DNA of 64,000 bases from positions 18,512 to 82,511 of the forward strand of contig CAISTG010000061.1 in NCBI GenBank assembly GCA_903888345.1, given 5' to 3'. The notes below the pieces were generated by a model, which saw nothing but the letters and a program-made list of their open reading frames with translations, did not search any database and was not told the origin of the DNA. Position 1 is the first letter of the stretch; every line of letters starts with the position of its first letter. Below, one piece after another: positions 3,000 to 25,322 of this stretch. The position numbers and the translations under genes were made by a program. Origin of the DNA: Candidatus Buchananbacteria bacterium. Lineage in GTDB: Bacteria; Patescibacteriota; Patescibacteriia; 2-01-FULL-39-33.

Positions 3000-4070
3000 A
3001 TGAAAAATTTTTATCAGGGTAAAAAAGTATTAATTACCGGACATACCGGTTTTAAGGGCGCTTGGTTGTCACAAATTTTATTGAATTTTGGCGCTCAGGT
3101 AATCGGCATTGCACTTGAGCCGCCCAGCCGACCATCATTATTCGGGGCTTTAGAATTATATCGAAGAATGACTAGTTATTTGGCTGATGTTCGCGACTAT
3201 GAAAAAATTAAAGCGATTATTGCTTTGGAACGACCGGATATCATTTTGCATTTGGCGGCACAGCCAATCGTGCGCTTAAGTTATGACGACCCACTGACGA
3301 CTTATACGACGAATATTTTGGGAACGACTAATGTTTTGCAGGCAGTCAAAGAAGTCGGTGGCATCAAGTCGGTTGTTATGATTACGACTGATAAGGTTTA
3401 TGAAAATAAAGAATGGATTTATCCGTATCGGGAGTTTGAACCATTAGGCGGTTATGATCCGTATAGCGCGTCTAAGGCGGCGGCGGATATCATTGCTAAT
3501 TCCTATATTCAATCATTTTTTAATGTTAATAAGTATGGCAGCGATCATCAGACTTTGGTGGGAATTGCCCGCGCTGGCAATGTGATTGGCGGCGGTGATT
3601 GGGCTCAAGATCGGTTAATCCCCGACATCGTGCGAGCAATCTTCGAAAAAAATACACCTGTTATCATCCGTAGCCCGAAAGCGATTCGTCCGTGGCAGCA
3701 TGTTCTCGAACCATTAAGTGGTTATTTGCAATTGGCAATGGGCCTCTATGAAGGTAAAACAGAATTGGTTGGGGCTTGGAATTTTGGCCCAGAGGAAGAA
3801 TCGTTTGTTAATGTGGAAGAGGTTTTAAAATTAGGGATTGCCGCCTGCGGCCAGGGGAGCTATGAAGTACAACCGGACTTAGCTAAACACGAGGCGCAAT
3901 TATTAAAATTAGATATTACTAAGGCGAAAGAGAAATTGGGCTGGAAACCGAGAATCGGCTTAGCTAAGAATATCGAGATGACTTTTTCGTGGTATGGAAA
4001 TTATTATTCTCAACCGGAGGAAGTAGTCGCTTTTACTGACAGACAAATTAATTATTTTTTTAATCTCTAA
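3000..4070 (+). CDS. rfbG: CDP-glucose 4,6-dehydratase
   Basis: 'GKKVLITGHTGFKGAWLS', 'YSASKAAAD' (YxxxK), 'RAGNVIGGGDWAQDRLIPDI' and 'IRPWQHVLEPLSGY' match RfbG/DdhB along the whole length. Confidence 0.9.
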   Translation: MKNFYQGKKVLITGHTGFKGAWLSQILLNFGAQVIGIALEPPSRPSLFGALELYRRMTSYLADVRDYEKIKAIIALERPDIILHLAAQPIVRLSYDDPLTTYTTNILGTTNVLQAVKEVGGIKSVVMITTDKVYENKEWIYPYREFEPLGGYDPYSASKAAADIIANSYIQSFFNVNKYGSDHQTLVGIARAGNVIGGGDWAQDRLIPDIVRAIFEKNTPVIIRSPKAIRPWQHVLEPLSGYLQLAMGLYEGKTELVGAWNFGPEEESFVNVEEVLKLGIAACGQGSYEVQPDLAKHEAQLLKLDITKAKEKLGWKPRIGLAKNIEMTFSWYGNYYSQPEEVVAFTDRQINYFFNL

Positions 4071-4882
4071 TGGAACAGCAAGATTACCAAAAAATAGCGA
4101 GTGCTATCAGATTATCGATTTTAGAAATGATTTATAATTCTAAGAGTTCCCATATTGGCTCGGCTTTTAGTATTGTTGATCTTTTGGTCTGTTTATATTT
4201 TAATGTCATGAGTGTAAATTTGGATGACCGATGTGCCATTGAACGTGACTTGTTTATTTTGAGTAAGGGGCATGCCGCCACGGCTTTATATGCGACGCTT
4301 TGCCAGCGTGGGTATTTTGCTTCGAAAGAATTAGAAAAATATGGCGAATCAGGAACCAAATTATCGGGACATGTCATTAAAGATTGTTTGCCGGGAATTG
4401 AAGTGTCGGCGGGATCACTCGGCCATGGGTTGCCAATTGCCGCCGGAATGGCGCTGGCAGCTAAGTTAGATAATCGCCGCAATCAGGTGTTCTGCCTGAT
4501 GGGTGATGGCGAATGCAATGAGGGATCAGTTTGGGAGGCGGCTATTTTTGCTGGTCATCATCAATTGGGCAATTTATTTGCTATTATTGATTTTAATAAT
4601 CAGCAGGGCATGGGACGTTCTGACGAAATTCTAAACCTGTCGGAGATGGGACAGGCTTGGGAAGGTTTTGGCTGGGAGGTGCAAACAGTAGACGGACATA
4701 ATCATCTGGAGATAATTAAAGCATTTGCTAATTTTTCAACCGTAAAGCCAAAAGTGCTAATTGCTAAAACAGTTAAAGGTAAGGGCGTTGCTTGGATGGA
4801 GGACAAGATTGAATGGCATTATAAGAGCCCGACTGAGGACCAGTATCAGGAGGCAAAAAATATATTAACTGCCAACCTATGA
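4070..4882 (+). CDS. Transketolase, N-terminal (thiamine-diphosphate-binding) subunit of a split transketolase
   Basis: 270 aa. Contains 'GHAATALYA', 'GSLGHGLP' and 'GDGECNEGSVWEA', typical of the TPP-binding half of split transketolases. Overlaps the next gene by 4 bp. Confidence 0.8.
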   Translation: MEQQDYQKIASAIRLSILEMIYNSKSSHIGSAFSIVDLLVCLYFNVMSVNLDDRCAIERDLFILSKGHAATALYATLCQRGYFASKELEKYGESGTKLSGHVIKDCLPGIEVSAGSLGHGLPIAAGMALAAKLDNRRNQVFCLMGDGECNEGSVWEAAIFAGHHQLGNLFAIIDFNNQQGMGRSDEILNLSEMGQAWEGFGWEVQTVDGHNHLEIIKAFANFSTVKPKVLIAKTVKGKGVAWMEDKIEWHYKSPTEDQYQEAKNILTANL

Positions 4883-5796
4883 GAAATACGACGATCAATG
4901 AAATATTGCAGTTAGCTAAAAGTGATCCCAACATCATCTTAATGACGGCGGACCTGGGTTATTCTGTTATGGAAAAATTTATTGAAGAACTGCCACGTCA
5001 GTTTATTAATGTTGGCATCGCCGAACAGAATATGATTGGTCTCGCAGCTGGTTTGGCGCTAATGGGGAAAAAAGTAATCGTTTATACGATCGTGCCTTTT
5101 GCTACCATGCGTTGTTTCGAGCAAATTCGGGTTGATCTTTGCTATCAAAATTTAGACGTTAAGATTATTGGTGTTGGTGGCGGTTATGCTTATGGAACTT
5201 TGGGCACGACACATTACGCGATTGAGGATTTGGCGATTATGCGCTCACTGCCCAACATGAAAGTATTTGCACCGGCTGATGCGATTGAAGCCAAAGAAAT
5301 AGTGCCATTATTGTTGAGTTTGCCTGGTCCTGGATATTTGCGCTTGAATCGAGGCGGTGAGATTAATATTCATCCTACGACTCAACTAAAATTGCAATTG
5401 GGGCAAGGGATAGATATGACGCCGTCAGCTGAAATATTATTAATCGCGACTGGCAATATTTTACAAAACGCCGTCGCCGCCATTAAACAGCTCGAATCAG
5501 AAAATATTAAGATCCAATTAGTGAGTCAACCATTTCTGAAGCCGATTGATCGCGACTGGTTGGTGGCAAAATTATCCGGCAAGAAATATATTTTTACCGT
5601 TGAAGAGCATAGCGTGATCGGAGGATTGGGGTCACTGATTGCTGAGCTTATTGCCGAGGCGGGCCTGCATGTCCGCTTAAAGCGTTTGGGTGTTAATGAT
5701 GAGTACTTTTCGACTATTGGAAAGCAGGATTATATGCGCGATTTGGCGGGCATCTCCACCGAAAAAATAGTCGAACAAATTAAACAATATGTCTAA
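4879..5796 (+). CDS. Transketolase, C-terminal (pyrimidine-binding/C-terminal domain) subunit
   Basis: 305 aa. 'GIAEQNMIGLAAGLA' and 'TTHYAIEDLAIMRSLPNMKVFAPAD' match the transketolase central/C-terminal domains. Translationally coupled to the N-terminal subunit. Confidence 0.8.
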   Translation: MRNTTINEILQLAKSDPNIILMTADLGYSVMEKFIEELPRQFINVGIAEQNMIGLAAGLALMGKKVIVYTIVPFATMRCFEQIRVDLCYQNLDVKIIGVGGGYAYGTLGTTHYAIEDLAIMRSLPNMKVFAPADAIEAKEIVPLLLSLPGPGYLRLNRGGEINIHPTTQLKLQLGQGIDMTPSAEILLIATGNILQNAVAAIKQLESENIKIQLVSQPFLKPIDRDWLVAKLSGKKYIFTVEEHSVIGGLGSLIAELIAEAGLHVRLKRLGVNDEYFSTIGKQDYMRDLAGISTEKIVEQIKQYV

Positions 5797-6673
5797 AACA
5801 AGAGTTTTATTAACTGGAGCCAGTGGATTTATTGGTCGCAATATTCGAGAACAGCTGGACGATAAATACGAGCTACTGTGTCCCAGCAGTCATGATTTGA
5901 ATTTGTTGGATAGCGCAGTCGTGTCAGAATATTTAGCGTCAAAGCAACCGGATCTGGTTGTGCATGTGGCAGGTAAGGGCGTTAGCCGCGGGCAACCTTT
6001 GACGGCGGATATTGCCGAAAATAATCTGCGGATGTTTTTTAATTTAGTCCGAAACAAAAAACATTTTCAACGTTTGATTGTCATTGGTTCGGGAGCGGAG
6101 TATGATAAAAGCCGATCAATTAGCCAGGTAACGGAAGCGGATTTCGATCGATCGGTGCCTCAAGATCAATATGGATTCTCCAAATACGTGATGTCTAAAT
6201 ACGCCGAGCAAGTCGACTACATCACCCACCTGAGATTATTCGGCGTTTATGGCAAGTACGAGGATTATACCATTCGCTTTATTTCCAATATGATCGCTCG
6301 CGCCCTAAATGATTTACCTCTGGTGATAAATCAAAACGCCAATTTCGATTATATCTTTATTGATGATTTAGTCCGGATTATTGATTTAATGATTATGGCT
6401 AAGCCAGTGCAGACCTTTTACAATTTAGGCGGTGACCAAGCAGTTGAGTTATTGCAAGTGGCCCAATTAGTTAATGAACAATTAAATAAACGCTTGCCAA
6501 TAGAAATCAAGATTAGTGGTCTTAATAAAGAGTATACTTGCTCTTCCGATCGCTTTAAGCAGGAGTATCCCAATTTTAAATTTACTGATCTCAAAGTGGC
6601 GATTCAAAAGCTTACTTATTACTATCAGAATAATAACGAGACCATTGATCCTGACAAATTAAGAACGAATTAA
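5789..6673 (+). CDS. NAD(P)-dependent sugar epimerase/reductase (SDR; GDP-fucose-synthase-like fold)
   Basis: N-terminal Rossmann motif 'VLLTGASGFIGRNI' and 'YGFSKYVMSKY' (YxxxK). Lies inside the nucleotide-sugar cluster. Confidence 0.6.
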   Translation: MSKTRVLLTGASGFIGRNIREQLDDKYELLCPSSHDLNLLDSAVVSEYLASKQPDLVVHVAGKGVSRGQPLTADIAENNLRMFFNLVRNKKHFQRLIVIGSGAEYDKSRSISQVTEADFDRSVPQDQYGFSKYVMSKYAEQVDYITHLRLFGVYGKYEDYTIRFISNMIARALNDLPLVINQNANFDYIFIDDLVRIIDLMIMAKPVQTFYNLGGDQAVELLQVAQLVNEQLNKRLPIEIKISGLNKEYTCSSDRFKQEYPNFKFTDLKVAIQKLTYYYQNNNETIDPDKLRTN

Positions 6674-6676
6674 ACT

Positions 6677-7768
6677 TTGTTAGTTATGGAAAATATTATG
6701 AACAATTCCGATCAAATCATTCAAGAGGATTTAAGCTTCATCGCGCAGGCTGCTTTGCCGTGGGCCGAATTGGCGGGAAAAAATGTCTTGATTACGGGAG
6801 CGAGTGGCGCTTTGCCGGCCTATATGGTTGAAACGATCCTATACCTTAATGAAAAGGTTTTTGAAGCCAAGGCAACAATTTTTGCTTTAGTCCGCAATGA
6901 GGCTAAAGCGAAGGCAAGATTTAAACGCTATGAAAATAATCCGTACTTGAAGTTTATTATTCAGGATGTTTGCGATAAAATCGTGGTGGATGACGACCTC
7001 GATTATATTATTCATGCAGCCAGCCAGGCCAGCCCTAAGTATTATGGGCAGGATCCGGTCGGTACGCTATTGCCCAATGTTTTGGGGACTTATCACTTAT
7101 TAGAATTGGCGCGACAAAAGCGGCTGAAGGCATTTTTATTTTTTAGTTCCAGTACGGTCTACGGTAAAATGATCGCTAATGATGGCTCAGCTGCCGAAGC
7201 CGATTTTGGCGTGCTGAATCCGCTGACTATCGCTGCTTGCTATCCAGAAAGCAAAAGAATGGGGGAGACGATGTGCGCTGCCTGGTTAAGTCAATATCAA
7301 ATACCAATCAAGATTATTAGGCCGTTTCATACTTATGGTCCCGGGATTTCTTTAGATGATGGCCGTGTCTTTGCTGATTTTTGCAAGAATATTATTAATG
7401 ACGAGGCTATCAGCCTCAATAGTGACGGCAGTGCTAAGCGAGCTTTTTGCTATTTAGCTGATGCGACGATCGGATTTTTTACGGTGTTACTTAAGGGTGA
7501 GGTGGGAGAGGCCTATAATGTCGCTGGTGCCGAAGAAATCAGTATTTTGGAATTGGCGCGCTTGTTGGTTGGGTTATTTCCGGAAAAAAATATTGATATT
7601 TCTTACCAAGAAAATACAAATAAGGGTTATTTGAAAACAGCGGTCACTAGTTATGTCCCTAATTCTAATAAACTCAAGGCTCTTGGTTGGCAACAGAAGT
7701 ATCCAATTAAGGAGGGTTTTCGCAGAATGATTACGAACTATCTTAATGAATTAGGTTCTGAGGCGTAA
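6677..7768 (+). CDS. NAD-dependent epimerase/dehydratase family protein
   Basis: 'VLITGASGALPAY' Rossmann motif, 'YPESKRMGE' (YxxxK), 363 aa. Confidence 0.6.
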   Translation: MLVMENIMNNSDQIIQEDLSFIAQAALPWAELAGKNVLITGASGALPAYMVETILYLNEKVFEAKATIFALVRNEAKAKARFKRYENNPYLKFIIQDVCDKIVVDDDLDYIIHAASQASPKYYGQDPVGTLLPNVLGTYHLLELARQKRLKAFLFFSSSTVYGKMIANDGSAAEADFGVLNPLTIAACYPESKRMGETMCAAWLSQYQIPIKIIRPFHTYGPGISLDDGRVFADFCKNIINDEAISLNSDGSAKRAFCYLADATIGFFTVLLKGEVGEAYNVAGAEEISILELARLLVGLFPEKNIDISYQENTNKGYLKTAVTSYVPNSNKLKALGWQQKYPIKEGFRRMITNYLNELGSEA

Positions 7769-7799
7769 CTTAGGCCTCGACAATTTAAATATAATTTTT

Positions 7800-9104
7800 A
7801 TGAATGAAAATCTTAAAGCAGAGTTAATTAAAGAGTATAACTCACGTTTCCCCCAAAAGGAATTTACAGCGGAAATTAGTGCGGTGCCGGTATCGGGCAA
7901 GGTTTTTGATGAGCAGGAAATTTTGCTGATGACCGAGGCTGTTTTGGACGGCTGGTGGACTGAAGGTCGGTTTACGGCTGAGTTCGAACAGAAATTGGCC
8001 GAGTTTGTCGGCGTACAATATTGCGCCGCGGTTAATTCTGGATCATCGGCTAATCTTTTAGCGATTGCTTGTTTGACTTCACAGAAACTGCCGCAGGAAA
8101 AGAGACTGCAACCGGGAGATGAGGTTATTACGGTGGCGGCTGGCTTTCCCACGACCATTAATCCTTTATTGCAATTTAATTTAACACCAGTATTTATTGA
8201 TGTCGAATTGGGAACTTACGTTCCTTCCCTTGAATCAATTAAAGCTGCTCTATCTGATAAAACAAAAGCGGTCATGATTGCTCATACCTTGGGCAATCCT
8301 TTCGAACTGGAGGAAATTGTTGAATTTTGCCAGCAGCATAATTTATGGTTAATCGAAGATAATTGCGATGCTTTGGGCTCAAGGCTCAATGGAAAAAAAA
8401 CTGGATCTTTCGGCGATATTTCGACGCTCAGTTTTTATCCGGCCCATCATATCACTACCGGTGAAGGTGGCGCGGTTTTGACTAATAATGCTTTGCTTAA
8501 TCGGATCATTAGATCAATCCGCGACTGGGGTCGGGATTGTTGGTGCCCCACCGGTAAGGATGATTCTTGTCAGCGACGCTTTGAGTGGCAATTAGGCGCC
8601 TTACCATTAGGTTATGATCATAAGTATACTTACAGTGAAATTGGTTACAATCTTAAAATGATGGATGTTCAGGCGGCTCTCGGCTTAGCCCAGTTCCAAA
8701 AATTGCCAATGTTTATCGAGAAACGCAAAACTAATTTTAAATTGCTGTATTCTGCTTTTAAAAAATTTGATGATGTATTTATCTTGCCGCAATGGAGCGT
8801 TGGCGCCGACCCGAGTTGGTTTGGATTTTTGTTGACGGTTAAAGATGGGGCAAAATTCAAGCGTGATGATTTATTAAAATTCTTGAATAGTAAAAAAATT
8901 GGCACGCGCTTATTATTTGCCGGCAATGTCACCAAGCAACCGTATTTTACGGAGAGAAGCGTTGCTTTTCGAGTTGCTGGCACTTTAGACAATACCGATA
9001 AGATTATGAATGATACTTTTTGGATTGGTGTGGGGCCCTTAGTAACCGAGAGTATGATTGGATATATAATAAAGGCAATTGAAGGCTTCCTGGCAAGAAA
9101 TTAA
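7800..9104 (+). CDS. rfbH: CDP-6-deoxy-D-xylo-4-hexulose 3-dehydrase (E1; PMP-dependent DegT/DnrJ/EryC1 family)
   Basis: 'PGDEVITVAAGFPTTINP', 'DWGRDCWCPTGKDDSCQRRFEWQLGALPLGYDHKYTYSEIGYNLKMMDVQAALGLAQ' and 'IGTRLLFAGN...QPYF' are collinear with Salmonella RfbH/DdhC as recalled. 434 aa. Confidence 0.9.
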   Translation: MNENLKAELIKEYNSRFPQKEFTAEISAVPVSGKVFDEQEILLMTEAVLDGWWTEGRFTAEFEQKLAEFVGVQYCAAVNSGSSANLLAIACLTSQKLPQEKRLQPGDEVITVAAGFPTTINPLLQFNLTPVFIDVELGTYVPSLESIKAALSDKTKAVMIAHTLGNPFELEEIVEFCQQHNLWLIEDNCDALGSRLNGKKTGSFGDISTLSFYPAHHITTGEGGAVLTNNALLNRIIRSIRDWGRDCWCPTGKDDSCQRRFEWQLGALPLGYDHKYTYSEIGYNLKMMDVQAALGLAQFQKLPMFIEKRKTNFKLLYSAFKKFDDVFILPQWSVGADPSWFGFLLTVKDGAKFKRDDLLKFLNSKKIGTRLLFAGNVTKQPYFTERSVAFRVAGTLDNTDKIMNDTFWIGVGPLVTESMIGYIIKAIEGFLARN

Positions 9105-9113
9105 TTCTTTTAA

Positions 9114-10028
9114 ATGTCATTAGCAAACATTGATACCCGCAAGACGATTCTTTTAACCGGCGCGACCGGTTATTTGGGCAGTAATTTGCTGCAGGCGTTA
9201 TTAGCTCGATCCGATTATCGGGTGATTGTTTTAAAGCGCTCTTTTTCCAATACTTTTAGAATCAGCAATTGTTTAGATTACGTAACAGCTTACAATCTTG
9301 ATGAAGTGGAATTAGAGTCAGTTTTCCGCGATAATCAGGTTGATTTGATTTTGCATTGTGCGACCGATTATGGTCGTAAAAATGTTAATCCTTTACAGGT
9401 AGTGGAAGCGAATTTGATTTTGCCGTTGAAGCTGATGGAAATCGGCATCAAATATGGCGTTAAGGGATTTATTAATACTGACACTATCTTAGATAAAAGA
9501 ATCAATCATTATTCCTTATCAAAAAAACAGTTTAAGGACTGGCTGATTAGCTATCGTAATGAGTTGATTTGTATCAATGTGGTTTCGGAACATTTTTATG
9601 GCCCCGGTGATGATAAGACGAAATTCGTTTCTTTTGTCATTGATAGTTATTTGCGCCGCGTTGCCAAAATTGAGTTGACCTTAGGTGAGCAAAAAAGAGA
9701 TTTTATTTATATTGATGACATGGTCGATGCTTTTATAAAAATCATCGACTATGCTTTCACTTTAAGTAATGGTTTTTATGAATTTCAAACTGGCAGCGAA
9801 CAAGTGACGACCGTTAAAGATTTAGTGCAAATGATTGGAACTATTTTGGACAATAAAATAACCTATCCTGATTTTGGTGCCTTGCCGTATCGAGAAAATG
9901 AAGTGATGGAGTGCGTCGCCGATACAACGGAATTAAAAAAATTAGGCTGGCAGCCGCAAAACTCGCTGTTGGCTGGCTTGCAAAAAACAATCAAGCAAGA
10001 ATTGAATAATCTAACTGAACAATTATGA
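9114..10028 (+). CDS. SDR-family NDP-sugar reductase, candidate CDP-paratose synthase
   Basis: '[18 protein letters not shown]' Rossmann motif and YxxxK ('YSLSKKQ'). Placed immediately upstream of the tyvelose-epimerase homolog. Confidence 0.55.
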
Positions 10029-11044
10029 AATATTTGATAAACGGCGGTTGCGGGTTTCTGGGTGCCAACTTAGCTCAGGCGGTTTTGCAACGAGGCGATG
10101 AGTTGGTTATATTTGATAATTTATCGCGTGTTGGGTCAGAAAAGAATCTGGCCTGGTTACTTGGATTGGGCAAGTTTAAATTTGTTAATGGTGATATTCG
10201 TAATCAGAATGATGTCGAGAGAATTATTAAGGCAGAAAAACCCGAGGTTATTTTTCATTTAGCCGGTCAAGTGGCGATGACCACTTCCATCGAAAATCCA
10301 CGTAAGGATTTTGAAATTAATGCGGGCGGAACCTTTAATCTTTTGGATGCGGTGCGTCAGTTTTCGCCGGAGTCGGTGGTAATCTATTCTTCGACCAATA
10401 AGGTTTATGGGGATTTGGAATGGCTCGAATATTTGGAGCAAGAAAAACGTTATGAAATTAAATCATATCCGCAGGGTTTATCAGAGTCAGTGCCGCTAAA
10501 TTTTTCCTCGCCTTATGGCTGTTCCAAGGGCTCCGCTGACCAGTATATGTTAGATTTTCATCATATTTTCGATTTAAAGACGATCGTTTTTCGTCACTCT
10601 TCCATGTATGGCGGGCGGCAGTTCTCGACTTATGACCAGGGGTGGATTGGTTGGTTTTGCCAGCAAGCGCTTGATACCTCGCTAGGTAAACTGGACAGAC
10701 CTTTTACGATTTCTGGCGATGGCAAGCAAGTTCGTGATGTGCTTCACGCTGAAGACATGATTGATTTGTATTTCGCTGCCGCAGCGCAAGCCGATAAGGT
10801 GAAGGGAGAAGTTTTTAATATTGGTGGCGGCACCCATAATAGTTTATCGCTGCTAGAATTATTTGATTTATTGGAGACGGAGTTGGGGGTTAAATTAAAC
10901 TATACGAAATTGCCAGCACGAGCTAGCGACCAAAAAGTTTTTATTGCCGATGTCAGTAAGGCTAAAAAAATGTTGGGTTGGGAACCGCAGGTTAGTGCTA
11001 TTGCCGGGATTAGAAAAATGCTGGCTTGGCTGCAACAGCAATAA
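10025..11044 (+). CDS. rfbE: CDP-paratose 2-epimerase (CDP-tyvelose epimerase) homolog
   Basis: '[15 protein letters not shown]', '[15 protein letters not shown]', '[16 protein letters not shown]', '[25 protein letters not shown]' and '[21 protein letters not shown]' closely follow the S. Typhi RfbE/Tyv sequence as recalled. Confidence 0.85.
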
Positions 11045-11053
11045 TCAATTATT

Positions 11054-11746
11054 ATGGAACCTAAAGATTTAAGTGTAATTATTCCAGCCTATAAAGAGGC
11101 GGAGAATTTAAAAATAATTCTTCCGCAGCTTGTTGCTGTAATACGAGAATTAGGACAAGCTGAGGTGTTAGTAATCGACACGGTTGAGCCGCTAGACGAA
11201 ACGGCCCAGGTTTGCGAAGCGAATGCCGTCAATTATTATAATCGTCGGGACGGCAATAATTATGGTGATGCCATTAGGACGGGGATAGCGCAAGCAACTG
11301 GTAAGTATACAATCTTCATGGATGCTGACGGATCGCATGACCCCAACTTTATTAAGGCGTTATATGGCTATCGAGCTGATTTTGATATCGTCATTGCTTC
11401 ACGCTATGTTAATGGCGGTGACACGGACAACAGTCGGTTATTAATTTTTATGAGCTTGGCGGTTAATTATATCTATGGCCTCGTGCTAAATATTAAATGT
11501 CAGGATATCTCTAATAGTTTTAAACTTTATCAGACCGCTGATTTGAAGCAACTATCTTTAAAGTGTAATAATTTTGATATTGTAGAAGAAATTATTTATA
11601 AATTGAAAAAACAAAAGGGAGTTCTAAAAATCAAGGAGTTGCCATTCTTGTTTAAAAAAAGGATGTTTGGCGATACCAAAAGGAACCTTTTGCAGTTCAT
11701 TCTGACTTACATCGTGACCTTATATAAACTACGATTCGATAAATAG
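11054..11746 (+). CDS. GT2 glycosyltransferase, polyprenol-phosphate sugar synthase (DPM1/GtrB-like)
   Basis: 'LSVIIPAYKEAENL' and 'FMDADGSHDP' (DxD). Short 230-aa single-domain GT2. Confidence 0.7.
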   Translation: MEPKDLSVIIPAYKEAENLKIILPQLVAVIRELGQAEVLVIDTVEPLDETAQVCEANAVNYYNRRDGNNYGDAIRTGIAQATGKYTIFMDADGSHDPNFIKALYGYRADFDIVIASRYVNGGDTDNSRLLIFMSLAVNYIYGLVLNIKCQDISNSFKLYQTADLKQLSLKCNNFDIVEEIIYKLKKQKGVLKIKELPFLFKKRMFGDTKRNLLQFILTYIVTLYKLRFDK

Positions 11747-11788
11747 TATCACGAGGAAGGGGTGATTACTTAACCATAATGAAAATAT

Positions 11789-14509
11789 TTGCCTATGTCC
11801 GAGTTTAGTAAAATATTCAAAAAAAATATTTTAGCCATCAGTGTATCTGCCGGTTTTATATTTCTGACGATTTGGGCGGGTAATCTTATTTCAGTGGTTA
11901 CCAGCCGCGATATTTTAGATCCACTGAAGGTTACTGTTGAGAGGCTAGACGGTCATCGGCCTAGCTCAGTTAAGGTTTTGGCGACTTTGTCACGGGCGGG
12001 AAATACTATCAATTTGGAGCCGGTAGCTGGCGCGCCTAATCAGTGGGATAATCAGTATAAGACCTTTATCGCCAAGTTGATGCTTGGGTTTAAGGCGGAG
12101 GACTTCGATCAACTGGCAACGGTAGTGGTTGAGTTAGGCGGTAAAAGGTTTGTGTATTCTAAAGAACAGTTTTTGCAGCAGTGGCCGCTGGTTAAGATAA
12201 AAAATGAGGAGTTACTACTTACTGACACAGCGGGCGAATCTCACTACGAAGTCTATGAGGCACCATCAGAGATTAGGGCCAATCCGTTAGCGTTACCCTT
12301 GGTACCGGGAATTTTCAGTAGCCTAAATTTTAATGGTAAAGATAATTTGCTATTGCGACCACTAATTGGTAGTCTCCAGACAGCCAGCTTTATAATTGGT
12401 CTCCTGATCTGGTGGTGTCTATTATGGTGGAGGTTTTTTCGACCAACTAAGACTGTCTCGACCGAGTCAGAATTATTAAATTCACAACGGCAGTTTATGA
12501 TCGGCGGTTTGAGTATTTTAGTCGCAGTGATCGTACTCGCGCTGATTAATGTACTGATTTTGGCCTACTATCGACCGGACACCTCGCAAGTAATTGTTGA
12601 GGCGGCGAAAATTTATCTTAAAGGCACTTTAGCGGCCTTCTTGCCGAAACCAGTTGAACGGCTACAGTTTGTTGTAAGTATCTTGCTGAGTCCGTTTATC
12701 TTGTGGTTATCTTATAGTCAGATCAAGCGACTAATTAATCGATGGTCGGAAAAAATATTGAAACCTGGCTATTACTGGCTGAGTATTTTTATTCCTTTGA
12801 GTTTGTTTGCCGTAATTTATCTGGGCTTGGCGGTAAGTAACTTTTTATATGTCAGTACGAGTTTTTCGTTTGGTTATTTCGGCAAATTCATTTTTGGCTG
12901 GATATTGTTTCCTTTGATGGTCTGGCTAAGTCAGCAGCAGTTTCAACAGCAAAGCCATCGAGTTGGTAAATATTTGCTATATGTAAGTTGTGGTTTTTTT
13001 GCTTTGCTTTCAGCCTTTATAAATACTTTTGCTTCCAATAATCTCGATTTAGTGACGGGTCGCTGGGTGGCCATGCATTTTGATCCGGTTTTTTATGTGA
13101 TGACGCAAGTGATGGCAGGGAAAACTATGTTAGTAAATTTAACCGGATTATATGGGCTTTATCCTATTTTTTTGCAGCCACTATTTAGCTTGATTGGCTT
13201 GAATGTTCTGAAATTTACTTTTGTATTCGGCTTTATTTTTGCTAGTGCCTATTTCTGTATTTTTATTTTTTTGCAACAGCAGGTTAAGAGTCGCTTGATT
13301 TTAGGGTTTAGTTTTTTAACACTTGTTTTCTATGTCTTAGATAATAATGTTAACCCGATTCCTTATTTTCAATATTGGCCCATTCGGACAATCTTTCCTT
13401 GTTTAATGCTGCTACTTGTTTCAATTTATGCCAAGAGCGAAAATAAATTGGTTTATTATTTGGGTTTTATTGTCAGCTCTTTGGCACTGTTGTGGAATTT
13501 TGATTCTGGTATCATCGTCATCCTGGCCTGGCTAATCTCTTTATGTTACTTAGAATTATTTAATAGCGATAAGCGATTGGTGGTTTTCGCTTTAGTCCGC
13601 CATTTTTTGGTGAGTCTAAGTTCTTTAGTGGTGGTGCTGGGCGTTTATGGTTTGTATACGTTTGGTCGCAGTGGAAGCTGGCCGAATTTACAGTTATTAT
13701 GGCAATATCAAAAAATGTTTGTTGCTGGCTATTTCTTGATTCCGATGCCTTTTCCGCACCTTTGGGTCGCTGTCGCCCTTGTCTTTTTGATTGGCCTGTT
13801 AATTCCAATTATGATTTGGCTTGATGATAAGTCGCGTCGCGAGCGGGGGTTTGTTATGCTTTTTGTAACTGTTCTGGGCTTAGGTCTGTTTAGTTATTAT
13901 GAGGGGCGTTCGCACGATTTGACTTTCTATAGCCCGCTCTATACTGTCATTATTTTGTTGGCCTTACTGGCTGATGGCGCTTACGCGAAATATTTAAAAC
14001 ATCAAATAAATTACGGTCTGGGCCTAATACTGTTAATGGTAATCTTTTTTATTTCCGCGGCACCGTTTAATTTGTTGTTTAATCTCGGTAAATATTATTC
14101 TTGGGTCGGTCCGCATGCGGTGGCAGCGGCTTCCCAAAAATCAACAAGTCTAACGAGAAATGTCGCCTTTATTAAACAGCATACGGTAGTGGGGGAGCGG
14201 ATTTTAATAGTGGCCAGAGATTCTAATGATGGTATTTATTATGGAGAATCGCAAACGCGGGCCGCCTTGTCTTTGCCGGCGTCAACTGACATATTTTTCC
14301 AATCAGAAATCGATCGCTTAGCCAGTTTTTTATTATGTAATCAATCGGTCAAAGTGTTTATTTATCCTTATAGTAGCTTCAGCTTTGATGATCAACGAGT
14401 TCAGCAAAGTATTAAGAATGATTATGTGGCGACGGCAATCAGCCAAGATGATATGGCCCTAGTTAATAATACACAAGTGCGACAAAACGCTTGTGACTTA
14501 AATAAGTAA
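11789..14509 (+). CDS. Large polytopic membrane protein (906 aa), candidate GT-C glycosyltransferase
   Basis: N-terminal TM anchor, soluble segment, then about 15 hydrophobic helices and a C-terminal soluble domain. Location next to a polyprenol-P-sugar synthase suggests a lipid-linked-donor glycosyltransferase. No diagnostic motif recognised. Confidence 0.35.
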   Translation: MPMSEFSKIFKKNILAISVSAGFIFLTIWAGNLISVVTSRDILDPLKVTVERLDGHRPSSVKVLATLSRAGNTINLEPVAGAPNQWDNQYKTFIAKLMLGFKAEDFDQLATVVVELGGKRFVYSKEQFLQQWPLVKIKNEELLLTDTAGESHYEVYEAPSEIRANPLALPLVPGIFSSLNFNGKDNLLLRPLIGSLQTASFIIGLLIWWCLLWWRFFRPTKTVSTESELLNSQRQFMIGGLSILVAVIVLALINVLILAYYRPDTSQVIVEAAKIYLKGTLAAFLPKPVERLQFVVSILLSPFILWLSYSQIKRLINRWSEKILKPGYYWLSIFIPLSLFAVIYLGLAVSNFLYVSTSFSFGYFGKFIFGWILFPLMVWLSQQQFQQQSHRVGKYLLYVSCGFFALLSAFINTFASNNLDLVTGRWVAMHFDPVFYVMTQVMAGKTMLVNLTGLYGLYPIFLQPLFSLIGLNVLKFTFVFGFIFASAYFCIFIFLQQQVKSRLILGFSFLTLVFYVLDNNVNPIPYFQYWPIRTIFPCLMLLLVSIYAKSENKLVYYLGFIVSSLALLWNFDSGIIVILAWLISLCYLELFNSDKRLVVFALVRHFLVSLSSLVVVLGVYGLYTFGRSGSWPNLQLLWQYQKMFVAGYFLIPMPFPHLWVAVALVFLIGLLIPIMIWLDDKSRRERGFVMLFVTVLGLGLFSYYEGRSHDLTFYSPLYTVIILLALLADGAYAKYLKHQINYGLGLILLMVIFFISAAPFNLLFNLGKYYSWVGPHAVAAASQKSTSLTRNVAFIKQHTVVGERILIVARDSNDGIYYGESQTRAALSLPASTDIFFQSEIDRLASFLLCNQSVKVFIYPYSSFSFDDQRVQQSIKNDYVATAISQDDMALVNNTQVRQNACDLNK

Positions 14510-14517
14510 CATAATTT

Positions 14518-15879
14518 ATGAATGAATTGTATGGCTATCTAAAGTACGCTGGGGGCCGTTTGTTGGTCCGGCTCTTTGGGCTCAAGGTATTTTCATATTC
14601 CAGCATTAATGAGGATAATATTATCGATTGGTTAACGGGTTACAAACGGGAGGGTACTTACATCGATATTGGCGCTAATAATCCCGACGTTACCAATAAT
14701 ACTAAGTTATTCTATCTGCGAGGTTGGCGAGGCATAAATATTGAACCCGCTCAGCATGAATTTGGACTCCTGGAGCTGGCGCGTCCTGGTGATACTAATT
14801 ACAATTGTGCGATTGGAACCGGCATAGTGACCTTTTTCGAGGGTGAGGACGATAATACTGGCAATACCTTTGATTATAAACTGGCGACCGAGCGCCACTT
14901 AAAACGAAGCCGCCAGTTGACTTTGAAACCTTTAAGTGAGATTTTTTCGGAGAATAAATTGACCCATGTCGACTTTATCTCCATCGATGTTGAGGGTTAC
15001 GAGGTGGAAGTTTTAAAAAGCAATGATTGGACCAAATACCAGGCGGATGTCTTGTGTATTGAGGGAAGTGGTTATAGTTATTTGAAGCAGTTTGGTTATC
15101 GAAAAGTTTTTTGGGACGGTCATAATAGTTATTATAAATTGTTTAAAAAATTTCATTTTATGTCCAAGCTTAAAGAGTATGTTATTGATCATGGTTTTTG
15201 GTATAAGCTTTATCTTAAGTTAAAGTTAAGGTTTGATTCGACTGCTGGCATTACAAAACAACAAATAGCTGAGCAGTTAGGACCGCGTCCGGTTATTCTG
15301 GAAATCGGTGCTCATGTGGGCAGCGATACGGTTGAAATGTCGGTGTTGTGGCCTCAAGGAAAAATTTATGCGTTTGAGCCATTGCCGGATATCTTTAAAC
15401 GCCTGAAATTTAAAACTAAGAATTTTAGTAATATTGAATTGATTCCCGCTGCTGTTACTGATCACGATACGGGCGGAACGCAAGAAATGTTCGTCAGTAC
15501 GGTCTCTGATGCTTCCAGCTCACTCTTAAAGCCGAAAGATCATTTGTTATATTGCCCGGATATCAGTTTTTCGGAAGCCACCACGCCAATCAGAACGGTT
15601 ATTTTAAGTGATTGGCTGAGAAGCAAAAAGATTGAAAAAATCGATTTGATTTGGATCGATGCGCAAGGAATGGAATTGAATATTTTTAAATCCTTGGGCG
15701 AGCAAATTAGTAACGTTAGTTGTATTTATACCGAAGTGTCCTTGACCGAGTTTTATGAAGGGTCAGGAACTTATGAAGATATCAAAACTTATCTTGGTGG
15801 GTTCGGCTTTATTTTGATCGCGGATGATTTTCAGTCAGGCCAGTTGATGGGCAATGCTTTATTTAAAAAAAATCAATAA
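14518..15879 (+). CDS. Tandem FkbM-family SAM-dependent methyltransferase (two FkbM domains)
   Basis: Domain 1: 'YIDIGANNPDVTNNT...GINIEP...ISIDVEGYEVEVL'. Domain 2: 'ILEIGAHVGSDT...IYAFEPLPDIF...IWIDAQGMELNIF'. Both match the FkbM (Methyltransf_21) pattern. Confidence 0.7.
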   Translation: MNELYGYLKYAGGRLLVRLFGLKVFSYSSINEDNIIDWLTGYKREGTYIDIGANNPDVTNNTKLFYLRGWRGINIEPAQHEFGLLELARPGDTNYNCAIGTGIVTFFEGEDDNTGNTFDYKLATERHLKRSRQLTLKPLSEIFSENKLTHVDFISIDVEGYEVEVLKSNDWTKYQADVLCIEGSGYSYLKQFGYRKVFWDGHNSYYKLFKKFHFMSKLKEYVIDHGFWYKLYLKLKLRFDSTAGITKQQIAEQLGPRPVILEIGAHVGSDTVEMSVLWPQGKIYAFEPLPDIFKRLKFKTKNFSNIELIPAAVTDHDTGGTQEMFVSTVSDASSSLLKPKDHLLYCPDISFSEATTPIRTVILSDWLRSKKIEKIDLIWIDAQGMELNIFKSLGEQISNVSCIYTEVSLTEFYEGSGTYEDIKTYLGGFGFILIADDFQSGQLMGNALFKKNQ

Positions 15880-15886
15880 TCAGCTT

Positions 15887-16858
15887 ATGACCAATCCACT
15901 TTTAAGTATTTGTATACCCACCTATAATCGAGCGAATTATTTGGCTGAAAGCCTAGCCGCGATAGTGGTTCAGTTTCAGAATCACCCTGAGTTACTGACG
16001 GAGGTTGAAGTGATTATTTCTGATAATGCGAGCACCGACACCACCGCGCTCGTGGCGCAGAAGTATCGGGCGGAATATCCTAATATTACTTACTTTTGTA
16101 ATGACAAAAACCTCGGTAGCGATGAAAATTATATTAGCGCTGTGGGTCACTCTAATGGCGAGTATGGCTGGTTGATTGGCGATGATGATTATATTGTCGG
16201 CGGTGGAATAAAATTCGTTGTTGATTATTTGCGTCATAATCAAGTTTCTGTTTTAACGGTTGAATCTCGCACTTTTGTAAGTGTGGCCGAGGTCTTAACT
16301 TCGAGATTGACAGTGACCCCTGAATTGTTGGTTAGAACCAACTCCCATGACAATTTTTTTAAACAAGGATATTGTATCGGCTTGCTGTGCTCAATCATCT
16401 TCCGTCGCTCCTTATGGCTAGCCGTCGATCGGGCTAATTATCGGCCCGGCTGGTCATATTATGAGATTGCTCTCAAGTTAATGGCTCAATCAAGCTTGCC
16501 GATGGTTCACTTAAGTTGCCCGCTGGTGATTACCAGAGAAGATAGTTTGTGGGTTAAGGACGGAACCGAGTTCTTTTTCTTTATTAATTGGAAAAAGATT
16601 TTAGAAAAACTAGCAGATTTCGGTTATAATCGGACCTATCTCCAGTCCCGGGTTGATGAATTAGCAAAACATTTATTGATTATTTTATTGCGCGCTAAAG
16701 GTCATGATTTGCGTTGCTCAATTGCTAACTATAAATTATTGTCGGCGGAATTTAAAAGTTATCCAGGCTGGTTGTTGCTGGCGACGGTTATTTATCCGAT
16801 GCCAAATAACTTAGTTAAAGCCGTCAGAGACTTAAAAAAATACCTTAAACACTCTTGA
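15887..16858 (+). CDS. GT2 glycosyltransferase
   Basis: 'LSICIPTYNRANYL' and 'VIISDNASTDTT'. Start placed at the ATG 8 nt after the upstream stop (the listed ORF starts at 15854, overlapping). Confidence 0.75.
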   Translation: MTNPLLSICIPTYNRANYLAESLAAIVVQFQNHPELLTEVEVIISDNASTDTTALVAQKYRAEYPNITYFCNDKNLGSDENYISAVGHSNGEYGWLIGDDDYIVGGGIKFVVDYLRHNQVSVLTVESRTFVSVAEVLTSRLTVTPELLVRTNSHDNFFKQGYCIGLLCSIIFRRSLWLAVDRANYRPGWSYYEIALKLMAQSSLPMVHLSCPLVITREDSLWVKDGTEFFFFINWKKILEKLADFGYNRTYLQSRVDELAKHLLIILLRAKGHDLRCSIANYKLLSAEFKSYPGWLLLATVIYPMPNNLVKAVRDLKKYLKHS

Positions 16859-16859
16859 T

Positions 16860-17693
16860 ATGAGTAACATTTCTTTTGTAATTTTTACCTTTAACGAAGA
16901 AAAAAGAATCGAAGCAGCTATCCGTAATTTCATTAATTACGGACCGGTTATAATCATGGATGGCGGCAGTACTGACGCGACCCAGGAAATTTCGGAGTGG
17001 CTCGGAGCGAAATTTGTTTTGCGTCCCAAGACCGATAAGTTATTTGTGGAGAACGCCGAAAACTATGAGGTAGTCCTAGCCAATGTTACGACCGATTGGA
17101 TTTACTGGGGCTATGCCGATAATTTAGCGCCCCTGAGCTTGATTAGAAAGCTCGTCGCCTTATCGCAACAGACAAAATACAAATATGTAATTGTGCCTCT
17201 TTATACCTATTTATGGGGGGAGACTAAGCAACCGGCACTGAAGGGTGCGATGCCATGTATTTTTATGAAACAATTTCTTGATTTCAATAACAACCATATT
17301 CATGGCATGGGTAGGTTTCTGGGTCGCAGTGATGAAATCTTATCCTTACCTAATCAGGACGAATTCGCCTTGCGGCATTTTAGTCTCTACGACCTCAATA
17401 AATTCGTGATGGGGCATTTACGTTATGCCCAGGCAGAGGCTGATTTTAAATTCGAAAGTGGCAATAAATTTTCATTACTTAAATTGGGACGCGGCATGGT
17501 CGGTTATTTTTTAATGTACATCAGGGGCGGCTATAAAAATGGAACCCGGGGATTATTAGTCAGTTTGGCTTATGCATTTTTTAGGTTTCTAGTCTATTTC
17601 AGATTATTTGAATTAGAAAACAACCTAACTTTAGAATCTATTGAAGCCGAATATCAAAAAGAAAAAAATAAAATAATTAGTAATTTAAATTAA
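16860..17693 (+). CDS. GT2-like glycosyltransferase
   Basis: 'ISFVIFTFNEEKRIEAAI...IIMDGGSTDAT' is a GT2-like N-terminus. Confidence 0.55.
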   Translation: MSNISFVIFTFNEEKRIEAAIRNFINYGPVIIMDGGSTDATQEISEWLGAKFVLRPKTDKLFVENAENYEVVLANVTTDWIYWGYADNLAPLSLIRKLVALSQQTKYKYVIVPLYTYLWGETKQPALKGAMPCIFMKQFLDFNNNHIHGMGRFLGRSDEILSLPNQDEFALRHFSLYDLNKFVMGHLRYAQAEADFKFESGNKFSLLKLGRGMVGYFLMYIRGGYKNGTRGLLVSLAYAFFRFLVYFRLFELENNLTLESIEAEYQKEKNKIISNLN

Positions 17694-17705
17694 TATACTT
17701 CATTT

Positions 17706-18503
17706 ATGATCACAGTTATCACGGCCATTTATAAATCCGATAATTATCTTGAGGCCTATGCCCGACGATTACAAAAATTTGCGGAAACCTTAAAGCAAGC
17801 CAAGCGGGAGTTTGAGGTAATTATTGTGCCGCAATTGCCATCAACGAAGGAACAGGCAATTCTCAAGTCATTGGCAGCTTCCCCTTGGCTTAGGATTCAA
17901 GAAAATAGTAAGCCGTCGCTTTATGCCGCTTGGAATACAGGATTACGTTTAGCTCGGGGCGAGGCGATTTGTTTTTGGAATGCCGATGATGTCAGAACGC
18001 CAGCCGCCGTAATTGCTGGTGCTAAATTAATTGGCGAGGGGGCGGAGTTTGTTTATTTCCCTTTTATTATTCGCTGGTATCTAAAATTGTTCGGCGTATC
18101 CCTTTTAGTGAAGTGGAAATATATTGATTGCTTAAATTTGACTCAAGAAGATTTTAAAAGATCAATGCCCTTTGCCTCCTTTTGGATGGGTAGCAAAAGC
18201 TTATTCGAGAAGGTTGGACCATTTGACGAACAATTTAAGATCGTCTCCGATTTCGATTATTCCGTTCGCGCTGGCAAGGCAACTGATAAATTTGTCCGTT
18301 CCGAAGTTCTGGCCGGATATTTTCGCGTTGATGGCAATGGTCTCAGTTCTGGCGGTAAACCATTACATACTGCCGAAAACAATATTGTTTGCCGACGCCA
18401 CGGCATTAATGATAAAATAGTTCCAGGCTTTGATGAATTGGAAAGCAAGTATCAAGTCGATAAAATAAAATTAAACGGCGAATATGTTGAATATAATTTC
18501 TAG
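17706..18503 (+). CDS. GT2-like glycosyltransferase
   Basis: 'MITVITAIYKSDNYL' and 'AAWNTGLRLARGEAICFWNADD' (DxD-like). Confidence 0.5.
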   Translation: MITVITAIYKSDNYLEAYARRLQKFAETLKQAKREFEVIIVPQLPSTKEQAILKSLAASPWLRIQENSKPSLYAAWNTGLRLARGEAICFWNADDVRTPAAVIAGAKLIGEGAEFVYFPFIIRWYLKLFGVSLLVKWKYIDCLNLTQEDFKRSMPFASFWMGSKSLFEKVGPFDEQFKIVSDFDYSVRAGKATDKFVRSEVLAGYFRVDGNGLSSGGKPLHTAENNIVCRRHGINDKIVPGFDELESKYQVDKIKLNGEYVEYNF

Positions 18504-23936: not shown

Positions 23937-23937
23937 A

Positions 23938-25312: not shown

Positions 25313-25322
25313 ATATATTATT

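Follow-up and report, generated by a model that had tools for sequence, protein, structure and literature searches.

A split transketolase gene pair, here named tktN and tktC, lies within a cytidine diphosphate (CDP)-sugar operon on a 64-kb stretch of DNA from Candidatus Buchananbacteria bacterium (contig CAISTG010000061.1), the whole of which is referred to below as the window. By its sequence, the pair belongs to a distinct clade of transketolase-like proteins encoded in glycan clusters and is predicted not to be the enzyme of the pentose-phosphate pathway. On balance, and with modest confidence, it is read here as a thiamine diphosphate (ThDP)-dependent carboligase that would act on CDP-4-keto-3,6-dideoxyglucose, adding a two-carbon (C2) ketol unit at its C-4 keto group, after which short-chain dehydrogenases/reductases (SDRs) would reduce the branch. 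The two genes are as follows.

4070-4882, + strand: tktN, 270 aa, PF00456 Transketolase_N (3.8e-37); ThDP/diphosphate-binding (PP) subunit.
4879-5796, + strand: tktC, 305 aa, PF02779 Transket_pyr (5e-32) and PF02780 Transketolase_C (5.2e-21); pyrimidine-binding (Pyr) and C-terminal subunit.

A preliminary description of this DNA had called these open reading frames (ORFs) the N and C subunits of a split transketolase with a 4-bp overlap, and their exact coordinates, Pfam domains and overlap all agree with that call. At the junction, CCTATGAGAAAT, the ATG of tktC lies over the TGA of tktN with 4 bp in common (ATGA); the last base of the upstream gene rfbG is also the first base of tktN (TAATG), and the 3' end of tktC shares 8 bp with the following gene, sdrA. 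Independent metagenome contigs carry an identical tktN/tktC pair. An antisense ORF inside tktN (4132-4482) was considered and found to be unsupported.

The PP, Pyr and C domains of transketolase are all present, divided between the two polypeptides, and the closest solved match of each is the split transketolase of Carboxydothermus hydrogenoformans (6YAK for tktN, 3.5e-65, 42.6% identity; 6YAJ for tktC, 4.3e-59, 38.4% identity), with E-values that rule out a chance match. The best NCBIfam model was PRK05899.2-5 (255 bits for tktN and 175 bits for tktC), below its cut-off of 488 bits, which is defined on the full-length protein. The single-chain TPP_enzyme_N/M/C architecture of YerE-type enzymes was not matched, with a marginal TPP_enzyme_C hit on TktN only (23 bits). 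The two products are predicted to be the halves of one intact heteromeric ThDP enzyme.

To compare active sites, both subunits were aligned with TktA and DXS of Escherichia coli (MG1655), with the Carboxydothermus and human transketolase sequences, and with 80 related pairs. The latter are the best 80 loci (43-53% identity) among at least 596 stretches recovered when a single genome of each GTDB species was scanned, and all counts given below refer to them. The state of the window pair at E. coli (Ec) positions is listed here.

Kept in TktN: Ec H26 as H28; H66 as H68; H100 as H101.
Kept in TktN: Ec D155 as D146; N185 as N176; H261 as H250 (ThDP/Mg2+ motif G145-D146-G147...N176).
Kept in TktC: Ec R358 as R2; E411 as E49; F437 as F74; H473 as H112; R520 as R158.
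Changed in TktN: Ec Q118 to H119; G262 to Y251.
Changed in TktC: Ec F434 to I71; Y440 to Q82; H461 to G100; D469 to L108.
Changed in TktC: the Ec S385 loop is absent.

Q118, G262, H461 and D469 are all retained in E. coli TktA, human TKT and the Carboxydothermus split transketolase, and a HMMER pairwise alignment with 6YAJ agrees on the H-to-G and D-to-L changes (window gvgggyaygtlgtth, 6YAJ aathagltvgedgash). The changed states are widespread among the relatives, with H118 found in 79/80 loci, G461 in 78/80, I434 in 77/80 and Q440 in 78/80; the S385 loop is gapped in all 80, and position 469 is occupied by L, A, Q, H or N and in none by D. In transketolase, the phosphate of the substrate is held by H461, S385, R358 and R520, the 2-hydroxyl of the aldose acceptor is bound by D469, and the ketol donor is contacted at its C1-hydroxyl by H100 and H473. 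The preliminary description had proposed a comparison of the phosphate-binding residues with those of TktA, loss of which would point to an acceptor other than a sugar phosphate, and the loss proved to be partial: His461 is replaced by Gly, the Ser385 loop is absent and Asp469 is replaced by Leu, but Arg358 and Arg520 are retained. Only the two Arg of the canonical sugar-phosphate set (Arg358, Ser385, His461, Arg520) are kept, and the pair does not qualify as a canonical sugar-phosphate transketolase, while all its ThDP catalytic residues are in place. Retention of the catalytic residues together with loss of acceptor residues suggests that the pair is catalytically complete, with a remodelled acceptor channel. 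Since H100 and H473 are retained, a ketol donor and dihydroxyethyl-ThDP would be favoured over pyruvate, and the loss of D469 would fit an acceptor lacking an alpha-hydroxyl, i.e. one with CH2 beside its carbonyl, as in the case of a 3-deoxy-4-ketosugar. Binding of the CDP diphosphate could fall to R358 and R/K520, both of which are retained.

More than 8000 homologues were found, the closest (49-72% identity) being unnamed or labelled transketolase and located in candidate phyla radiation (CPR) and other metagenome-assembled genomes. The clade shares a sequence signature consisting of GSLGHG, WHYK and GxGGGxxYGx[LA]GxTH. In a crude neighbour-joining tree, the canonical split transketolases form the outgroup, a Streptomyces pair from an amino-group-carrier setting branches next, and all glycan-cluster pairs, including that of the window, fall into one clade. 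Carriers of the pair include Omnitrophota, Paenibacillus, Geobacter, Methylomarinum, Bacteroides, Planctomycetota, Acidobacteriota and Bradyrhizobium, along with several CPR lineages and DPANN archaea. One Micrarchaeota contig (L019) encodes a canonical and a variant split pair approximately 2-3 kb apart (6391-8310 on the - strand and 10001-12643 on the + strand); the canonical pair has G262, H461 and D469, and rfbF/G/H genes flank the variant pair, which an sdrA orthologue follows. This double pair serves as a within-genome control, and the variant is therefore not the housekeeping enzyme.

The association with CDP-sugar genes extends across these carriers: in 33/80 loci, rfbF/rfbG, a true Fe-S RfbH or both lie no more than 10 kb from the transketolase pair. 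RfbH (at least 45% identity) is present in 23/80, and all scorable examples (21 ORFs, clustered set) have both the His and the Fe-S motif that are described below for the window protein. The most compact arrangement is on plasmid pHY1 of Methylovirgula sp. HY1, where a six-gene cassette (rfbF-rfbG-oxidoreductase-rfbH-transketolase-TK_C, PGAP annotation) is followed by a convergent gene; here the transketolase pair and one SDR are the sole tailoring steps past E1 (RfbH), an arrangement that resembles ddhABC(D)-yerE-yerF. A plasmid of Paenibacillus cellulosilyticus (L086) carries rfbF-rfbG-methyltransferase-[SDR::TK-N]-TK_C-TylF-type methyltransferase (PGAP annotation), with the SDR and TK-N as one 635-aa ORF (7888-9795) and no rfbH within 9 kb. 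The sequence signature is present in both of these pairs. A second dehydratase-like SDR (319 aa; L090 3501-4460), 28% identical to the RfbG of the window, stands beside rfbF and rfbH in many transketolase loci (homologues in L004, L015, L019, L022, L040, L045, L063, L067, L070, L072, L078, L082 and L083), and may represent an alternative lineage of CDP-glucose 4,6-dehydratase.

Within the window, the genes from 838 to about 27 kb all lie on the + strand and overlap or nearly abut, in the order wzx-rfbF-rfbG-tktN-tktC-sdrA-sdrB-rfbH-rfbS-like-rfbE-GT2. Past the GT2 gene there are many glycosyltransferases and methyltransferases, ending with an initiating Bac_transf gene (27052-28419), and the remainder is chromosomal (metG, murA, rsmH). 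MurA shares 78-81% identity with proteins from metagenome-assembled genomes of Patescibacteria and Candidatus Buchananbacteria, which places the host among the uncultured CPR bacteria. Terminator-like sites in 1-12 kb were fewer than in shuffled sequence in a promoter/terminator scan, and an Rfam search returned two tRNAs only. The placement of the pair between rfbG and downstream sugar genes and rfbH, also noted in the preliminary description, is borne out by matches to TIGR02622, PF01370 (twice) and PRK15407. The genes flanking the pair are as follows.

838-2190, + strand: Wzx-type flippase, first clear gene of the operon; PF01943 Polysacc_synt 1.2e-23, Wzx_EPS 1.4e-16.
2168-2989, + strand: rfbF, glucose-1-phosphate cytidylyltransferase; TIGR02623 3e-83, 279 bits, marginally below the 300-bit cut-off.
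3000-4070, + strand: rfbG, CDP-glucose 4,6-dehydratase; TIGR02622 1.9e-138, 461 bits, cut-off 278.
5789-6673, + strand: sdrA, extended SDR, candidate branch ketoreductase or epimerase; PF01370 7.7e-29.
6677-7768, + strand: sdrB, extended SDR, UXS-like, second candidate tailoring reductase; PF01370 1.3e-37.
7800-9104, + strand: rfbH, CDP-6-deoxy-D-xylo-4-hexulose 3-dehydrase (E1); PRK15407 669 bits, cut-off 423.
9114-10028, + strand: rfbS-like SDR between rfbH and rfbE, candidate CDP-paratose synthase (4-ketoreductase); 55-59% identical homologues are named CDP-paratose synthetase by JGI, this source annotation being the sole basis of the assignment.
10025-11044, + strand: rfbE, CDP-paratose/tyvelose 2-epimerase; 9RL0 (CDP-tyvelose 2-epimerase) 1.2e-160, 537 bits, and 1ORR 1.2e-139, 468 bits.
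11054-11746, + strand: GT2 glycosyltransferase directly 3' of the sugar-nucleotide genes; PF00535 2.4e-21; equivalent position in L089 and L090.

RfbH has the Fe-S motif C189-X57-C247-X-C249-X7-C257 and a His at the aminotransferase Lys position (SFYPAHHITTGEGG; AHH), which we take to be the hallmarks of E1 as defined in the E1 literature, and because of this combination it is considered a genuine Fe-S E1 dehydrase. The operon has a standard paratose/tyvelose pathway (rfbF-rfbG-rfbH-rfbS-rfbE) whose paratose/tyvelose branch (rfbS-like, rfbE) is complete, with tktN-tktC-sdrA-sdrB interposed between rfbG and rfbH, so that these four genes resemble a module inserted into a standard operon. The sdrA product has only a weak PDB match to RmlD; its orthologues (41-49% identity) lie directly 3' of the transketolase pair in L089, L090 and L019, and approximately 4 kb upstream of it in L022. 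The best PDB match of sdrB is UDP-glucuronate decarboxylase (135 bits), and its homologues (33-49% identity, at a threshold of at least 33%) are confined to transketolase loci with a true RfbH (L004, L026, L038, L042, L051 and L067). A motif-based search found no ORF with the plant-type ferredoxin motif of the E3 reductase (RfbI/DdhD/AscD) in the window, and likewise no such 2Fe-2S flavoprotein beside any true RfbH in the transketolase loci (L004-L083, L087, L089 and L090); a 320-aa E3 candidate in L053 proved to be an SDR.

Under the proposed pathway, RfbF, RfbG and RfbH (E1, plus a reductase) would form CDP-4-keto-3,6-dideoxy-D-glucose, and the transketolase-like enzyme would convert a ketol donor, with hydroxypyruvate or a ketose phosphate as candidates, into the alpha,beta-dihydroxyethyl-ThDP carbanion. 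Transfer of the C2 unit to the C-4 keto group would then yield a tertiary alcohol with a 4-C-hydroxyacetyl branch, which the translationally coupled sdrA and sdrB products could reduce and/or epimerise to a CDP-3,6-dideoxy-4-C-(1,2-dihydroxyethyl)hexose. In a parallel branch, the rfbS-like reductase and RfbE would turn CDP-4-keto-3,6-dideoxyglucose into CDP-paratose/tyvelose. The preliminary description had placed the branching on the CDP-4-keto-6-deoxy intermediate; a CDP-ketosugar acceptor is kept here, but with RfbH present the likelier acceptor is the RfbH product, CDP-4-keto-3,6-dideoxyglucose, because E1 needs a free 4-keto group and must therefore act before C-4 is branched.

Several observations weigh against this proposal. 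The 100% conservation of WHYK and DGEC[ND]EG is partly circular, as both were among the patterns used to collect the loci (H118, G461 and residue 469 are independent of the collection patterns), and the neighbour-joining tree carries no support values. The retention of Arg358 and Arg/Lys520 is compatible with a phosphorylated substrate, although the CDP diphosphate could also fill the site. To our knowledge, no bacterial glycan contains a 4-C-(1,2-dihydroxyethyl)-3,6-dideoxyhexose, and no biochemically studied member of the glycan clade was found in the searchable literature. Further, 47/80 loci have no CDP-sugar genes, and a CDP-ketosugar acceptor is not universal across the clade, yet these too are glycan loci, with two recurrent contexts in addition to the CDP-sugar one (context A). 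In context B, which is PglF/PglE/PglC-like, a small Bac_transf gene, a TylF-type methyltransferase or aldo-keto reductase, the transketolase pair, a Lys-type DegT aminotransferase and a CapD/PglF-type dehydratase occur together, resembling the pathway of UDP-4-keto-6-deoxy-N-acetylhexosamines. Context C, which is HldE-like and heptose-type, combines SDR-SDR-transketolase-zinc alcohol dehydrogenase-HAD-like protein-APH-like kinase-methyltransferase with an HldE-like PfkB kinase/cytidylyltransferase fusion, and suggests a pathway to a heptose-like or higher-carbon sugar. Since the three contexts differ, the common denominator of the clade appears to be nucleotide-sugar tailoring and not CDP sugars as such. 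Context B was seen in L007-L009, L023, L027-L030, L041, L046, L047 and others, and context C in a subclade comprising L017, L032, L052, L061, L064 and L065 (about 6-8 kb around the pair). The idea that the transketolase is always partnered by an E1-like pyridoxamine-phosphate enzyme was rejected, as the DegT neighbours in the non-CDP loci are of Lys type without the Fe-S motif.

The same caution arises from the loci most syntenic with the window, L090 and L089. L090 shares with it rfbF, the transketolase pair, sdrA (46%), rfbH, the rfbS-like and rfbE-like genes and GT2, and encodes a 909-aa protein 44% identical to the product of window 11789-14509 at the equivalent operon position. Both loci, and also L022, encode a YerE-like ThDP enzyme of the acetohydroxyacid synthase (AHAS) family beside the pair (regions L090 4466-6244, L089 4271-8998 and L022 1133-2974); in L090 and L089 its gene, of approximately 590 aa, lies between the dehydratase and tktN. 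In the PDB, the YerE-like protein matched 5AHK at 375 bits versus 294 bits for plant AHAS; the deposition title of 5AHK is acetolactate synthase II, and it is presumably the structure of Pseudomonas protegens YerE. The C-4 branching in these three clusters could thus be the work of YerE, with the transketolase doing something else. The co-occurrence indicates that the transketolase pair is not simply a YerE substitute, and the two enzymes may have different sugar products or may work one after the other. YerE, named in the preliminary description as the different ThDP enzyme of the yersiniose route, is indeed unrelated in architecture. No YerE-like gene is present in the window, in its 72%-identical relative, in L019 or in the Methylovirgula cassette. 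L089 also carries DmpF/DmpG-like genes (a 4-hydroxy-2-oxovalerate aldolase pair) and, immediately before tktN, a class I/II aminotransferase; the DmpF/DmpG-like products would make 4-hydroxy-2-oxovalerate, which a 2025 review of ThDP enzymes forming tertiary alcohols lists among the preferred donors of ErwE-type enzymes.

Of the alternatives to ketol transfer, a pyruvate-dependent reaction survives best, though it is unlikely: as in DXS or YerE, pyruvate would be decarboxylated and an acetyl (hydroxyethyl-ThDP-derived) branch placed on the same acceptor, giving a yersiniose-type 4-C-(1-hydroxyethyl) sugar after SDR reduction. The subunits give different signals in this respect. The C subunit scores equally on the DXS equivalog TIGR00204 (176 bits, with 51 bits for tktN; cut-off 466, not reached) and on PRK05899.2-5, DXS structures rank second behind 6YAJ among its PDB matches, and Gln at Ec position 440 is common to the window and E. 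coli DXS, whereas the N subunit is clearly transketolase-like (TK_N 128.5 bits, versus 41.7 for E1_dh and 39 for DXP_synthase_N). The same 2025 review describes the known sugar-branching ThDP enzymes, YerE and alphaKADH2, as users of pyruvate. In the present alignment, by contrast, the His100 equivalent is kept in 76/80 loci and has no His counterpart in E. coli DXS, Asp469 is present in DXS and lost in the window pair, and the relatives with a YerE-like enzyme would need no second pyruvate-dependent brancher.

Less probable still is a role in sugar-phosphate supply, in which the pair would make an unusual ketose phosphate (heptulose or octulose type) for another sugar of the 30-kb glycan locus before activation. 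The retained phosphate-site residues Arg358 and Arg/Lys520 would accord with such a role, as would the resemblance of the context C subclade (HldE-like fusion, HAD-like protein, APH-like kinase and zinc alcohol dehydrogenase) to a heptose pathway and a fucokinase-like GHMP fragment at 98-829 of the window. The loss of His461, the Ser385 loop and Asp469 argues the other way, and so does gene arrangement: the window pair is translationally coupled to rfbG and an SDR within the CDP-sugar block, the minimal Methylovirgula cassette has no user of a ketose phosphate, and the SDR::TK-N fusion adjoins rfbF/rfbG.

That this is the housekeeping transketolase of a genome-reduced Patescibacteria bacterium, placed within a polysaccharide operon by chance, is very improbable, and the residues, the phylogeny and the double pair of L019 led to its rejection. 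CPR genomes are small and split transketolases are common in them, but the acceptor-site residues are lost, rfb synteny is conserved across phyla, clade members occur on plasmids, a canonical and a variant pair stand on one contig, and in Bradyrhizobium, Paenibacillus and Bacteroides, taxa that generally have a canonical tkt, the clade member would be an extra pair. The least credible alternative is that the pair replaces the missing E3, with an oxidised ThDP-bound intermediate feeding electrons to the [2Fe-2S] cluster of RfbH: RfbH still has its Fe-S motif, is often a direct neighbour of the transketolase pair, and has no E3 ORF beside it in the window or in any RfbH-bearing transketolase locus by motif-based search, but the clade is found with rfbF/rfbG and no rfbH in 10 loci (including L086, with full flanks) and alongside ordinary Lys-type aminotransferases without the Fe-S motif, and neither subunit has a redox cofactor motif.

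The proposed ketol transfer to a nucleotide-sugar ketone has partial parallels in several known systems. The Carboxydothermus split transketolase has the same two-ORF layout (PP, then Pyr and C) and all ThDP catalytic residues in common with the window pair, but keeps Gln118, Gly262, His461 and Asp469 where the window has His, Tyr, Gly and Leu; enzymes of this type fall outside the glycan clade in the tree, and the window pair lies in a CDP-sugar operon. YerE and ErwE also perform ThDP-dependent branching at C-4 of CDP-3,6-dideoxy-4-keto-D-glucose, in lipopolysaccharide pathways fed by ddhA-D/rfbFGH(I) and with subsequent reduction of the branch, but they are unrelated single chains of approximately 590 aa, AHAS-like (TPP_enzyme_N/M/C), with alpha-keto-acid donors. 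The alphaKADH2-type E1 alpha/beta enzymes (e.g. KbDH-alpha/beta) are two-subunit ThDP enzymes that place a C2 branch on deoxy-keto sugars, the branch ketone then being reduced, methylated or transaminated; they differ in belonging to the E1 dehydrogenase family, in using pyruvate as donor and in residing in actinomycete antibiotic clusters. Krug et al. reportedly carried out an in-silico survey of branching ThDP enzymes in 2024.

According to the 2025 review, YerE-like and alphaKADH2 enzymes branch deoxy-keto sugars, transketolase hydroxyacetyl transfer has only been proposed, for miharamycin and amipurimycin biosynthesis, and 13 predicted transketolases of that kind are all split-gene, all from Streptomycetes and none characterised; ketone-accepting transketolases are regarded there as unproven, sought-after biocatalysts for chiral tertiary alcohols. 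The likeness to the window pair lies in the proposed ThDP-dependent transfer of a hydroxyacetyl group onto a keto sugar to give a tertiary alcohol, and the difference in their setting, Streptomyces nucleoside-antibiotic clusters, and in their being unproven in vitro; the two were compared by description only.

The closest characterised functional precedent is AziC5/C6, a split transketolase that, according to a review of DNA-alkylating natural products, extends N-acetylglutamate semialdehyde by two carbons, followed by transamination. Like the proposed enzyme it is a split transketolase of specialised metabolism that makes a two-carbon extension on an acceptor other than a sugar phosphate, passing the new ketone to an aminotransferase, but its acceptor is an aldehyde on a glutamate derivative and not a nucleotide-sugar ketone. 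Its setting of amino-group-carrier-protein genes and DegT was not seen in the window, with no LysW/LysX/ArgC-type genes in the first 32 kb, and is present in L088, where a linear plasmid of Streptomyces sp. NBC_01006 carries a LysW/LysX/ArgC/DegT/split-transketolase/nonribosomal peptide synthetase cluster (7340-18059) of the diamino-dihydroxyheptanoic acid (DADH; azinomycin/vazabitide) type. The L088 pair, inferred from gene context only to be an AziC5/C6-type enzyme, branches beside the glycan clade and shares with the window the changes of Gln118 to His and Tyr440 to Gln, but it has an intermediate pattern with His461 kept, Ser at 262 and Tyr at 469. The preliminary description had held that no function was settled for cluster-embedded split transketolases; this stands for the glycan-cluster pairs, for which the searchable open literature holds no functional study, but not for AziC5/C6, with its reported aldehyde extension. 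The one mention of glycan-cluster pairs in that literature is at the domain level, for the wps-2 exopolysaccharide cluster of Actinoplanes missouriensis (2026; PMC13390465), which has the context B arrangement and whose two transketolase genes are given domain names only.

Extended to the whole glycan-cluster clade (at least 596 stretches in GTDB species representatives, from bacteria including CPR to DPANN archaea), a tentative hypothesis, plausible though held with less assurance than the function proposed for the window pair, is that these proteins form a third, transketolase-type class of nucleotide-sugar C-branching enzymes. The ketone of a CDP- or UDP-deoxysugar would receive a hydroxyacetyl branch, leading to 4-C-(1,2-dihydroxyethyl)- or 4-C-(aminohydroxyethyl)-deoxyhexoses that are chemically undescribed, and where a YerE-like enzyme is also present the two carboligases would build higher-carbon sugars in succession. 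ThDP-dependent sugar branching itself is known; the proposed novelty is its performance by a transketolase scaffold in surface-glycan pathways. If this is true, there would be hundreds of candidate ketone-accepting transketolases in surface-glycan clusters of many phyla, versus the 13 Streptomyces candidates of the 2025 review, and CPR bacteria, DPANN archaea, Paenibacillus, Bradyrhizobium, Bacteroides and others would be predicted to display undescribed branched deoxysugars on their surfaces; such sugars would matter for serotyping, as phage receptors and in host recognition. Some of the carriers can be cultivated, and the predicted substrate, being that of YerE, is a defined compound that can be obtained. 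The genes are auto-annotated as plain transketolase, a label that could mislead when the metabolism of genome-reduced organisms is reconstructed, because a gene that probably does something else would be counted as evidence of a pentose-phosphate step.

The surrounding glycan locus occupies at least 30 kb of this genome-reduced Patescibacteria bacterium, with nearly all genes on one strand (window 1-32000), and contains about ten glycosyltransferases and at least three methyltransferases, including one of FkbM type. A GT11 fucosyltransferase-like gene lies at 25248-26222, in addition to the fucokinase-like GHMP fragment at 98-829. Over the entire window the GC skew is positive. At 23007-24573 a UbiA-family prenyltransferase is directly followed by a HAD hydrolase, a pair that recalls decaprenyl-phosphoribose synthase and its phosphatase, which make lipid-linked pentofuranose donors. 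Two long ORFs, 11789-14509 (906 aa) and 20202-22112 (636 aa), have no Pfam match and a strongly negative AT skew (about -0.25 and -0.22, i.e. a T-rich coding strand), and may encode polytopic membrane components of the glycan machinery.

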